Shown one piece after another: positions 22,110 through 62,818 of a DNA stretch of 64,000 nucleotides (the stretch's first letter is position 1; each line of letters starts with the position of its first letter). A program made the translations under genes and the position numbers. Below the pieces are notes generated by a model. The model had not been told where the DNA came from. It saw only the letters and a program-made list of their open reading frames with translations, and ran no database searches. Location of the stretch: IMG/VR virus record IMGVR_UViG_3300035696_000002. One strand, given 5' to 3'. Source of the stretch: a virus. Taxonomy: Duplodnaviria; Heunggongvirae; Uroviricota; Caudoviricetes.

Positions 22110-22187
22110 ATGAACCGCGTTTCCCTATCACTGTCGCTCTTGTATAGCCTCCTTAGCGGGGTCGGCGGCGGTGTGTTCAACGGGTAA
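22110..22187 (+). CDS. Leu/Ser/Tyr-rich leader peptide (25 aa, not in ORF track)
   Basis: MNRVSLSLSLLYSLLSGVGGGVFNG; GAGAG upstream; embedded in the attenuator. Confidence 0.8.
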   Translation: MNRVSLSLSLLYSLLSGVGGGVFNG

Positions 22188-27105: not shown

Positions 27106-27177
27106 ATGAACTTGATGCGACCATTTACGATGTTTCGACCGTGCATGCCTACCATGCGTCGGGAGACGATTCTGTAA
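27106..27177 (+). CDS. Met/Pro/Phe/Arg-rich leader peptide (23 aa, not in ORF track)
   Basis: MNLMRPFTMFRPCMPTMRRETIL; AAGGA 12 nt upstream; alternative in-frame ATG at 27115; 3' end lies in a long hairpin abutting tRNA-Pro. Confidence 0.65.
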   Translation: MNLMRPFTMFRPCMPTMRRETIL

Positions 27178-27208
27178 ATCGTCCGCATCCCGACGCTGCT
27201 AGGCGTAC

Positions 27209-27415: not shown

Positions 27416-27830
27416 TTGGAGTGTTCGCACGGAGAGTGGCCAACAGCCTGAACACGTGACCCGAAAAGCGGGGCAACCCGGATACGGGCATAAAGCTCTC
27501 CAACGAAATGATGCGGGGTTCGCCGGACGTACCCGGCGACGCAAGCGGGTGGTTACATCCGGCCCCCTAGCGAGTCAGTGGTGGAGCGGTCGCTCTTGGT
27601 CGCCGGGTGTCCGGCTGAGTGGCCGTGCTTAAGTGCCGAGGAGTGGTTGACCGACCGACACCGGATACCGCTCGACAGGTCGCCCGTAATTTGCTGAGGT
27701 AGATGCTTTGTGGTCATGCTGCCTGAGGAGCCCCGATTGCCATGGCAATCGGCAAGCACAAGGGGTGCCCCTGACAAAAGCGTCGGATGGAAGATCAGCC
27801 GCCATCGTGGCCATGAGGCTGGAAATTTTA
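27416..27830 (+). ncRNA. candidate large structured RNA (about 410 nt)
   Basis: No credible + strand ORF; multiple long-range stems; 20-bp perfect palindrome; bounded by tRNAs. Confidence 0.45.
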
Positions 27831-28940: not shown

Positions 28941-29231
28941 ATGTCTCATCCTACGTCGCGTGCCGAACGTCGGCACCAACGTGATCGTGTTATTGCCCGC
29001 CGCCGAAAGGTTGCGGAAACTGAGTGGGGCTACAACAACGGCGACTGGATCGCACGCGGTTGGGAACCATTCGTAAACTGGGGCGTATACGCCAAGTGGA
29101 ACGGTGGGTGCGGTTCATCCATGTGTCACGCGGCGAAGTACTTCAAGATCGCCCACAAACGCCGAGAGGCCCTGCACAATTCAGAATCGCAGGCGGAATT
29201 TCGGCGACGCAATAAAGTTGCATATCACTGA
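28941..29231 (+). CDS. basic hypothetical protein
   Basis: SD GGGGAG; SRAERRHQRDR...; 96 aa. Confidence 0.65.
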   Translation: MSHPTSRAERRHQRDRVIARRRKVAETEWGYNNGDWIARGWEPFVNWGVYAKWNGGCGSSMCHAAKYFKIAHKRREALHNSESQAEFRRRNKVAYH

Positions 29232-29354
29232 TCTTTCAGTATTATTTATAGGGCCTAAGATGGCCCGAGATATTGCAAGGCCGCAGGGTAGCAGCGTATC
29301 GGGAAGTCACAGCCAAGATTGCATCGGTTAAGTGCCCGCCCTGCGGAGTAAGTT

Positions 29355-29547
29355 TTTAGCCCAGTGGCCCGTGATTCAACTGGTTCTGTGTCGGAGTAAT
29401 GTGAGCCGACGCCATCCCCAGTATAAAAAACGCAGCAGCGGGGGGCAGGTACCGTAAGGCCTGCTGGAGGCATTCACGCAAAGGTGCTCGTCAACCTGTG
29501 ATCGCCGTATCGGGATACGCAGCATAACCGGAATGTGCTGGGCTAAA
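29355..29547 (+). ncRNA. unassigned multibranch RNA (about 190 nt)
   Basis: TTTAGCCCAGT/GCTGGGCTAAA 11-bp closing stem with several internal hairpins; flanked by AAGTTT spacers. Confidence 0.55.
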
Positions 29548-29558
29548 GTTTTCAATGA

Positions 29559-29635
<77 letters not shown>

Positions 29636-29640
29636 AGTTT

Positions 29641-29711
29641 GCCGGGGTGGGCTGTTCGCTTTGGCGGGCAGTTTATAAAGCTGTGGGGGTCAGCCCAGCG
29701 GTCACTCCGGC
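29641..29711 (+). ncRNA. tRNA-sized structured RNA without T-loop
   Basis: GCCGGGGTG/CACTCCGGC, GGGCTG/CAGCCC and two inner hairpins. Confidence 0.45.
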
Positions 29712-29718
29712 TACGATT

Positions 29719-29800
29719 TGCGGGCGAGTGGATGGGATACATAGACCATACAACGCTCATAACGTTGTGATTGCGGGTTCGACTCCCGCGTCCGCACCCA
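29719..29800 (+). tRNA. atypical tRNA(CAT) with C73 and 14-nt D-loop
   Basis: TGCGGGC/GTCCGCA, discriminator C, CCA; CAACG-CTCATAA-CGTTG; GCGGG-TTCGACT-CCCGC. Confidence 0.75.
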
Positions 29801-30076
29801 TTTCGGCCCTAGCTAGGTACGTGCCCGGAGCGGCAATTGATGCCAGCCTCAGGAGAATTACAGTCGTTTATCAATCGGCAGGGCCGAACGAGTGGTAGAT
29901 TCGTGTGAGACGGTGAGCTAGGCACCCTGTACGTTGGGGGTATACAGTGCCGGGTTGGGTTCGATTCCCAACTGCGATAGACGAGCAACGCGAGTCCAGT
30001 TAGGCGATCACGGGTAAAACTGCCTCGATAAGAGCGGAAGTCGGGTTACACAAACTCCCACTCGTGATCGGCCTAA

Positions 30077-30580
30077 CACCTAGATGTTGCCGCGTAATAG
30101 CGGCTGTGATGAGCAAGTCCCGACAAGGTCTCGACTTTGTGTCTGAGCGGAGTTGAGAAAAGCGGGAGCCGCGAAAGCGTTGAACTTGTGGAGTCACTTC
30201 TCAGACCGCTTTTTGAAAGATTGCAGCGGCAGGGTTGGCTAGTACGGAGAAGGCGTTCCCGCTCGCGGTCACACGCGATCAAAAGGTACGCGATACACCT
30301 TCTTCGCTCCCGTCATCCGGGAAAAGGCTAAGGCGTGGTGATTTCCCACGCACGTCGGTATGGAACGCCCTGTGGTAAGAGGAACCTTCTCCTCGGAAAA
30401 GGCAAGGATGATTCGCCGCTGCATATTTCTCGGGTCACTCCGAGTGGGGTGAGCGTCACCCAGTTTCCTGCATCTGTAAAATGTAGGTGGTGCGTCGCAA
30501 ACGAGCGGAAAACTATGAACTGCATTAGCTACAATCTCGACCTGTTTACCAGCCGCGAAAGCGGCCTGTAATACGTGTGT
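30077..30580 (+). ncRNA. candidate large ornate RNA (about 500 nt)
   Basis: Pseudoknot, long-range 8-9 bp stems, GAAA tetraloops, no credible ORF; directly upstream of tRNA-Phe. Confidence 0.55.
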
Positions 30581-30582
30581 TC

Positions 30583-30658
30583 GGGGGTGTAGCTGATGTG
30601 GTCTTAGCGGCGGCTTGAAAACCCGCAGATGGGAGTTCGATTCTCCCCGCCCCCACCA
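30583..30658 (+). tRNA. tRNA-Phe(GAA)
   Basis: GGGGGTG/CGCCCCC, GCGGC-TTGAAAA-CCCGC (one C:C mismatch), CCA. Confidence 0.88.
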
Positions 30659-30661
30659 TTT

Positions 30662-30737
30662 GGTGGGGTAGCTCCAATGGTAGAGCGGGGGCCTGAAAAG
30701 CCCCGCGTTGCGGGTTCGAGTCCCGCCCCCACCACCA
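30662..30737 (+). tRNA. tRNA-Phe(GAA)
   Basis: GGTGGGG/CCCCACC, GGGGC-CTGAAAA-GCCCC, CCA. Confidence 0.95.
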
Positions 30738-30748
30738 TTCCTTCCTGT

Positions 30749-30777
30749 TCGACAAATCCCCAAAAATCCAGTATTAT
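30749..30777 (+). promoter_or_regulatory. sigma70-like promoter
   Basis: TCGACA-17 nt-TATTAT. Confidence 0.65.
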
Positions 30778-30885
30778 TATCGCAGGAACATTCGGCCCGG
30801 TGCCGAGTGTAACCGATCTGTAAAGCAGGGCAGGGACGAGACCTTCGATCCGCTGGCTTGTATCTCAACCAAGGATACAAGTCCA

Positions 30886-31338
30886 ATGCCTCGAAAGAAG
30901 TATCAGCGTCCCGCAGAAGTCCCATTCACCGGGCTCAAAGCAGCCCCAGACTCCGAATTCTCCACAACCTTCGCACAGGGCATGGCGAACCGCATGGCGG
31001 TCAGCTACCACAAATACGGCCCAGTCGCCGAAGCTTACCCCAAGAAAGTTGACGCCATCGAATCCCTCAAGACTCGCCTCGACCTTTACATGAACGGCGG
31101 GGTGTTAAAGGGTGCTAAAATAGAATCGGGTAACACCGAGTACCTGATGGACGTTGCCAATTTCGCCATGATCGAGTTCATGCACCCGAAACATCCGAAG
31201 GCTTACTTCAAGGCGACGGATAGTAGCGGCTCGCCGGGCCGCAACTGGAACGACGGTCAGGTGACCGAAGCCGCCCATGGTGAGCAGCAAATGCAGGATC
31301 AGGTCGCGGCGTTTTATGCGAAACGAGGAGCAGAATGA
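30886..31338 (+). CDS. MazG-like all-alpha NTP pyrophosphatase-fold protein
   Basis: SYHKYG...GNTEYLMDVANFAMIEF motif; tentative. Confidence 0.6.
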   Translation: MPRKKYQRPAEVPFTGLKAAPDSEFSTTFAQGMANRMAVSYHKYGPVAEAYPKKVDAIESLKTRLDLYMNGGVLKGAKIESGNTEYLMDVANFAMIEFMHPKHPKAYFKATDSSGSPGRNWNDGQVTEAAHGEQQMQDQVAAFYAKRGAE

Positions 31339-62636: not shown

Positions 62637-62818
62637 TTCTCCTGATCGCGGAATCGGGTCAGCAAGTCAACGAGGGTTTCCTCGGTGAGGTGGATCGGAC
62701 GGTACTGGGTGTCCGGGCTGAGCGTCTTGCGGACGAACGCAAGGGCGGCTTGCCGGGTGTGCTCCAACGCCGGAGGGTAGTCCTGCGTGTGAGTCCAGAA
62801 CTCCGAGGGATTAGGCAC
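62630..62818 (-). CDS. hypothetical protein
   Basis: Probable GTG start at 62818. Confidence 0.5.
   Translation of the reverse strand: MPNPSEFWTHTQDYPPALEHTRQAALAFVRKTLSPDTQYRPIHLTEETLVDLLTRFRDQEKW

Follow-up and report, generated by a model that had tools for sequence, protein, structure and literature searches.

Four small modules, including a pseudoknotted RNA and a Phe-codon leader ORF, upstream of tRNA-Phe in a large phage genome

Comparative sequence analysis indicates that positions 30077-30580 of the window, the 64,000-nt stretch of DNA analysed here, consist of four small neighbouring modules (A to D) and not of one giant RNA. Module A is a discrete, covarying, pseudoknotted RNA that constitutes a new, well-supported non-coding RNA family with a defined fold. 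Module D is a short ORF, conserved among relatives, in which one UUU codon never varies and the codons ahead of it complement the 5' strand of the tRNA-Phe that follows. The overall reading that we consider probable combines a modular tRNA transcript, D as a gate on tRNA-Phe and A as a stable RNA.

A string of modules within the tRNA array

The window derives from a single 463,033-nt virus record (G000 in locus labels). ARAGORN, run on this whole genome, called 68 tRNAs and a permuted tmRNA (242851-243196), and the genome encodes its own RNase P RNA (305811-306131, 208 bits). Three tRNAs with a CUA anticodon, of the amber suppressor type, lie on the minus strand at 238747-239065; such tRNAs are also present in the related genomes G001 and G006. 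The studied stretch occupies most of a 782-nt gap extending from tRNA(CAU) at 29723-29800 to a pair of tRNA-Phe(GAA) genes that begin at 30583 and 30662, with a family A DNA polymerase encoded 2.4 kb downstream of the stretch. Neither the RNase P RNA model nor the tmRNA model matched within 30077-30580, the G000 copies lying elsewhere; RNase P-like motifs picked out by eye in the region were rejected, the true P RNA being the one at 305811-306131. The main features are as follows:

30086..30213, + strand: module A, conserved pseudoknotted ncRNA of ~128 nt, no Rfam family
30209..30221, + strand: U/A-rich spacer between modules, a likely processing site; all relatives shown have a U-rich stretch 3' of A
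30222..30423, + strand: module B, self-contained fold of ~200 nt with a 9-bp closing stem, no homologue found
30424..30506, + strand: module C, a wcaG-like tandem pair of UUUC-hairpin-UGG units
30515..30571, + strand: module D, leader ORF of 18 codons, one of them for Phe; found in 16/16 loci with this tRNA-Phe
30583..30658, + strand: first tRNA-Phe(GAA), proposed target of module D
30662..30737, + strand: second copy of tRNA-Phe(GAA)

Related phages of 400-460 kb were used for comparison. Five related loci were retrieved via the polymerase, metagenomic loci with a pattern from the conserved 5' part, and an independent set of loci via a small Cys-rich protein encoded in the relatives' interval; the 150-aa neighbour gene, also tried as a route to relatives, yielded unrelated phages. 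Against the relatives, the 500-nt stretch matched in pieces only. Annotated phage records held no match to the region, to module A or to module B, and gapped patterns searched in IMG/VR gave, beyond the known relatives, chance matches only. Rfam scans of the window and the relatives returned tRNAs and sub-threshold wcaG alone, and a cmscan of the region, the check first suggested for it, gave nothing above threshold.

The initial annotation, made from the sequence alone, had described one ornate RNA of about 500 nt, either a member of GOLLD or ROOL or a new class of such RNAs. All eight strands that it named are present at the coordinates given, and its view of the region as structured non-coding RNA with a real pseudoknot is borne out, except that the structure does not form one unit. 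Perfect stems of at least 7 bp number 10 in 30077-30580 against 5.95 in shuffles (P = 0.066), those of at least 8 bp 4 against 1.56 (P = 0.074), and the folding z of the stretch is -1.85 on the + strand and -3.18 on the - strand. With stem counts that are marginal relative to shuffles and a modest folding z, the single sequence alone is weak evidence.

Modules A and D are separated by 328 nt in the window versus 1,054-2,046 nt in six relatives, in which the interval holds other RNA modules and protein genes. Four loci have D and lack A, and the flanks of A vary from phage to phage on both sides. The spacing, the occurrence of D without A and the changing neighbours of A show that the layout in the window is a chance compaction of separate modules. 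We propose that the stretch would form part of a polycistronic Pro/Met/Phe tRNA transcript built like beads on a string, in which loss of intervening genes may have brought the four independent modules side by side.

GOLLD (RF02032) and ROOL (RF03087) are each a single RNA, ~600 to more than 800 nt long, that assembles into nanocages (10.1101/2024.12.08.627333). That the whole of 30077-30580 is one RNA of this kind, into which the relatives carry variable inserts, we judge very improbable. The stretch is indeed gene-free on the large scale and dense in hairpins, it sits 3' of tRNA-Met as one GOLLD does (10.1101/2024.12.08.627333), and tRNAs can sit in a GOLLD linker. However, neither the GOLLD nor the ROOL model matched anywhere in the genome at E<=10 (for ROOL without a positive control), nor did cmscan of the region against all of Rfam find them; the A-D gap reaches 2 kb with protein genes included, four D loci lack A, and no conserved pairing between modules was found. 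Module B, itself without a homologue, forms nearly all of its pairs internally (61.4 inside, ~2 outside). In place of a contiguous conserved RNA of several hundred nt with covariation throughout, the largest conserved RNA is ~128 nt. The likeness to GOLLD and ROOL thus lies in being phage-encoded, near tRNA islands and pseudoknotted, and the difference in the 128-nt conserved unit and the failure of both models to match. The idea of a new RNA class survives for module A, an undescribed structured family, at ~128 nt instead of ~500 nt. As a negative result, this indicates that a long gap without genes in a phage tRNA array can consist of several small RNAs in a row and need not hold a giant one.

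Further elements were observed around the stretch. A conserved non-coding module of ~200-250 nt precedes tRNA-Met at window 29355-29555, matching relatives down to E 1e-35 and nothing in Rfam above threshold; another lies between tRNA-Pro genes at window 27515-27700 and is shared with L168 and L169. Between tRNA(CAU) and module A, two closed hairpin modules (window 29802-29888 and 29999-30076) have no homologues by nhmmer. A tRNA-like element at window 29873-29979, with acceptor-like ends, a D-like arm and a T-arm, was missed by both ARAGORN and Rfam and has only weak similarity to a sequence in L232. The relatives carry several further RNA modules of this sort between A and tRNA-Phe, and RF-1-domain, IF3 C-terminal-domain and cytochrome c genes lie in or beside this tRNA block in L231, L232, L234 and L239.

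Module A and its neighbours B and C

The fold of module A comprises the following elements:

30089-93/30100-04, + strand: 5' hairpin
30106-10/30193-97, + strand: P2
30113-18/30184-89, + strand: P3
30119-22/30163-66, + strand: P4, arm of the three-way junction, placed by eye from alignments, MAFFT having aligned it in a shifted register
30131-39/30148-56, + strand: P5, in one arm with P4
30170-79, + strand: P6, GAAA hairpin at the three-way junction
30141..30147, + strand: 5' strand of the pseudoknot, in the P5 loop
30200..30206, + strand: 3' strand of the pseudoknot, in the tail after P2

A covariance model of A gave 18 matches (15 distinct, one partial). In the alignment of the 15 distinct rows, which was fitted to the nested helices and not to the pseudoknot, 95.7% of cells are paired and 19/33 pairs have changes on both sides, compared with 35-48% and 1-4 pairs in slid controls. 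A plain MAFFT alignment of eight A sequences gave the same picture. An A-B-A'-B' pseudoknot had been proposed for this segment, and covariation upholds one half of it: the helix GTCTGAG/CTCAGAC is 99% paired with 4/7 pairs compensatory, whereas AAAAGCG/CGCTTTT is 55% paired with none compensatory. The elements that cross GUCUGAG/CUCAGAC are the hairpin 30131-39/30148-56 and the enclosing stems, not AAAAGCG/CGCTTTT.

Module A occurs once in each of three genomes, and no long reading frame over it common to the relatives was found. Two A patterns had no exact match in GTDB genomes which, exact patterns only having been searched, is weak evidence of absence. A literature search, with most subscription papers outside its scope, found no paper on the family.

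The genes for RnaC and RnaD sit in the tRNA cluster of phage T4. These are stable small phage RNAs of unknown function (PMC9697503). By analogy with them, we tentatively regard A as most likely an RNA that is excised and then remains stable, acting in trans on the translation machinery; excision and stability are suggested by its discreteness, the U-rich spacer after it and its embedding among tRNAs. It would be cut out at the U-rich spacers, as tRNAs are, and persist in compact form. A resembles RnaC and RnaD in being a small phage RNA of unknown function and similar size; it differs from them in sequence, annotated phage records containing no match to A, and in its 3' end, which consists of the pseudoknot and a U tract and not of a tRNA-like CCA.

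Theta ribozymes are small, pseudoknotted and located beside phage tRNA genes; they have a nested double pseudoknot with a catalytic C and cleave within 5 nt of the tRNA end (PMC10879173). With these tRNA-adjacent phage ribozymes as precedent (PMC10879173), A could be a new self-cleaving ribozyme that helps to cut the tRNA polycistron, in a theta-like role with another fold. Its compact pseudoknot and conserved unpaired bases would suit such an activity, and in L083, L178, L229 and L236 it begins 2-10 nt after the 3' end of tRNA(CAU). We nevertheless consider this reading quite unlikely. A matched none of the ribozyme families of Rfam, and its covariation fits a topology other than the HDV-like nested double pseudoknot with a catalytic C in J4/2. 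In most loci, the window included, other modules separate the tRNA from A, and A occurs as a single copy, which does not fit the action of theta ribozymes at individual tRNA ends. What A shares with theta ribozymes is its nature as a small pseudoknotted RNA beside phage tRNA genes; its one pseudoknot joins a loop to the tail, and in many cases no tRNA lies next to it.

Less likely again is a ligand-binding aptamer or switch, in which the GCGGC strand has two alternative partners, one within the 5' hairpin and one at the 3' end just before the U tract. Both pairings are possible in 7/8 of the first sequences, a short U tract follows, and the alternative pairing could gate read-through into the downstream array. 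Yet the long-range GCGGC pairing is lost in divergent members and overlaps the covarying pseudoknot, the U tracts are just 3-5 nt with no terminator-like site found, and downstream lie varying ncRNA modules and no metabolic gene. Excision followed by a role in trans remains our preferred reading of A.

Module B is plausibly an RNA, on the strength of folding predictions, and an orphan. Its two long stems, both named in the initial annotation, were predicted with p=0.96 (30222-30/30415-23) and p=0.52 (30252-59/30362-69); homologues were found neither among the relatives nor in annotated phage records. B occupies the position of the relatives' module E, a conserved multi-arm RNA of ~150 nt found 3' of A in many relatives (e.g., L083:6806-6990, L081:5823-5970, L193:1556-1708), without an Rfam match and absent from G000. 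B is a doubtful homologue of E: position is the same, the closing stem is similar and one loop is shared, but the E model scores that loop only (7.1 bits, E=0.9).

The wcaG motif (RF01761) is known from 5' UTRs of cyanophages (Weinberg et al. 2010), its members so far being marine or cyanophage and lying ahead of exopolysaccharide or high-light genes (PMC2864571). Module C gave the best wcaG match in the genome (E=2.6e-4), at 29.6 bits versus a gathering score of 42, and its counterparts in relatives, with 31.3 and 28.1 bits, are likewise under the cut-off. C shares with wcaG the tandem hairpins flanked by GUUUC and GUGG, the A-rich loops, the phage setting and the position 5' of ORFs; it is not located in the 5' UTR of exopolysaccharide or high-light genes. 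By sequence, C resembles wcaG and does not qualify as a member. Relatives have C-type units too, with A-rich loops and stems that covary. In most relatives the units stand ahead of a small Cys-rich ORF, as a rule by 60-180 nt; in the window, C stands ahead of the Phe leader. The most likely role of C is that of a cis element, 5' of small ORFs, to which a protein binds.

Most C hairpins are followed by UGGUGG; both tRNA-Phe genes end in CCACCA, its complement, which could be coincidence. A conserved protein of 70-90 aa with eight invariant Cys and no precomputed Pfam domain (L081:6898-7146 and 21 clusters) is encoded just 5' of the Phe leader in relatives and is missing from G000.

The leader ORF before tRNA-Phe

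The 3' end of the stretch, initially annotated as lacking a credible ORF, contains the conserved 18-codon ORF of module D, which ends 11 nt 5' of tRNA-Phe. Within it lie:

30519..30540, + strand: anti-tRNA segment inside the leader ORF
30545-47, + strand: Phe codon TTT
30552-65, + strand: GAAA hairpin

A leader ORF precedes tRNA-Phe in all 16 distinct loci, one of which (L122) was selected by motif; the loci are related, and the counts given here are not independent events. The start lies 9 or 10 codons 5' of TTT; the difference is an indel of 3 nt, the frame is kept throughout, and none of the 16 has a stop in between. After the start, Phe (codon 10 or 11, UUU) is the sole invariant residue. 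In L084, L169 and L122, the ORF begins directly at the stop codon of the gene before it. A further 411-kb phage, L201, has an in-frame Phe codon before tRNA-Phe in an ORF that runs through the tRNA; this may be chance and was left uncounted. A 218-aa ORF on the minus strand (30269-30925) was rejected as lying antisense over both tRNA-Phe genes.

Positions 30519-33 and 30588-30602 of tRNA-Phe can form 15 contiguous pairs, G-U allowed, with a duplex energy of -29.5 kcal/mol (p=0.0005); among the first eight loci, this energy is individually significant in the window only, and cognate leader-tRNA pairs are no stronger than swapped ones (p=0.62). The tetramer CTAC, which complements tRNA bases 7-10, occurs in 13/16 leaders, where 2.6 would be expected; its copies are spread over the three reading frames, 10 of the 13 being in the Tyr frame; for other tRNAs of these phages a match of this type was found in 4/96. 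Conservation of D is partly at the RNA level, since UUUAC is also a paired part of a conserved stem and not one synonymous change occurs at the codons CTC GAC. As in attenuators, a conserved short ORF with a cognate codon thus lies upstream of the presumed regulated gene, with one codon and not a run. No intrinsic terminator was found within 29200-31000, so D would work like an attenuator without being a classical transcription attenuator.

In a model of the window, the probability of the tRNA acceptor stem is 0.98-0.99 as long as the ribosome sits on codons 2-11; it is 0.00 in the free RNA and again once the ribosome has reached codon 12 or later. This change between codons 11 and 12 places the predicted switch point on the Phe codon. 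For 16 nascent transcripts, the mean pairing between the leader and tRNA bases 1-12 was 0.66 when free and 0.04 with the ribosome at the Phe codon, and was back at 0.57 when the ribosome stood four codons further on; the absence of pairing under the ribosome mask is in part built into the model. Predicted folds that depend on ribosome position are clear in the window and in ~7/10 testable loci and are parameter-sensitive: the modelled switch varies with mask size and with the upstream length included, the free-state value of L168 being 0.94, 0.29 and 0.60 across three model runs. L169 showed no switch in the model. Among other tRNAs with their flanks included, the predicted acceptor stem is below 0.5 in 27/84 and below 0.05 in 13, so that predicted misfolding alone is not rare.

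We hypothesize that ribosomes translate the D leader. When Phe-tRNA is plentiful, they would pass UUU, and the leader would pair with the 5' leader and 5' strand of the tRNA, blocking the cloverleaf so that RNase P cannot release the tRNA. When Phe-tRNA is scarce, uncharged or cleaved, a ribosome would wait at UUU and cover the anti-tRNA segment, allowing tRNA-Phe to fold and to mature via RNase P. D would then apply the logic of attenuation to tRNA folding and processing in place of a terminator. On the model results, we lean towards such a coupling of UUU decoding to tRNA-Phe folding and maturation. Gating by D is further supported by codon-matched leaders at other + strand tRNA blocks and by the phage's own RNase P RNA.

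These blocks of G000 each begin with a short ORF rich in the amino acids of the block, namely the Ser, Trp/His/Arg/Asn/Gln/Lys, Val/Gly/Ala/Asp/Cys/Glu, Tyr/Leu and Pro/Met/Phe blocks. The block leader ORFs are:

G000 62722-62802, + strand: block leader ORF
G000 87542-87640, + strand: block leader ORF
G000 304156-304287, + strand: block leader ORF
window 22110-22187, + strand: block leader ORF
window 27107-27178, + strand: block leader ORF

Four of the five are followed by a terminator-like hairpin and a U tract, and counterparts exist at several blocks in two relatives, G001 and G006. D differs from these leaders in being internal, single-codon, terminator-less and dedicated to tRNA-Phe. An Ile/Thr/Gln-rich leader ORF was also noted ahead of an Ile/Thr/Gln tRNA block at L210:4666-4756 (G001).

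An alternative is that the Phe codon is no sensor and that D acts as an RNA hairpin in the pre-tRNA leader, aiding processing or folding, or as a gene for a peptide such as a QLxLF clamp-binding mimic. The UUUAC within the conserved stem and the two codons without synonymous change speak for a hairpin, and QLDLF can be read in several members. On the other hand, the fixed in-frame start, the 3-nt indel and the lack of stops favour translation, the anti-tRNA tetramer is maintained in three frames, and the other tRNA blocks of the same genome have codon-matched leaders. The clamp-binding LDLF peptide was rejected as an explanation of D: seven members lose the motif through T, H, P or A substitutions and keep Phe. 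We therefore rate this alternative as unlikely, though less so than the rival readings of module A, and retain codon-dependent gating as the preferred interpretation of D.

Relation to known systems

A bolder version of the overall reading, which we put forward tentatively, is that D is a natural single-codon sensor gating tRNA-Phe maturation within an operon that already has a leader, and that A is a new functional, possibly catalytic, class of phage RNA. A switch for a single tRNA would bear on why large phages carry many tRNAs. If the proposal is true, the phage senses when a specific charged tRNA is lost, be it to starvation or to anticodon nucleases of the host, and supplies it as needed, with feedback control of one tRNA exerted at the maturation step. 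The D-tRNA element, at ~150 nt, is testable in E. coli or in vitro, and module A adds a well-supported RNA family whose defined fold is ready for cleavage and probing assays.

A literature search, most subscription papers being outside its scope, found no paper describing the Phe leader D and none on leader-peptide control of tRNA genes. The leaders of pheM/pheST, trpL and hisL are leader-peptide attenuators of amino-acid operons. The same holds for pheL (review PMC3082878). D is like these attenuators in having a short ORF with cognate codon(s), in the proposed choice between two folds by ribosome position, and in an output that would restore the scarce aminoacyl-tRNA. It differs in having one Phe codon instead of a run, in lacking a terminator and in its location inside a phage tRNA array; its competing strand is the tRNA itself, and what it is proposed to control is the folding of the tRNA and its processing by RNase P.

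Control of this step has so far been shown with an engineered device: a synthetic riboswitch (Ender et al. [quoted passage not shown] That system is ligand-driven; if our reading is true, D would be a natural case of RNase P maturation control and its ribosome-driven counterpart.
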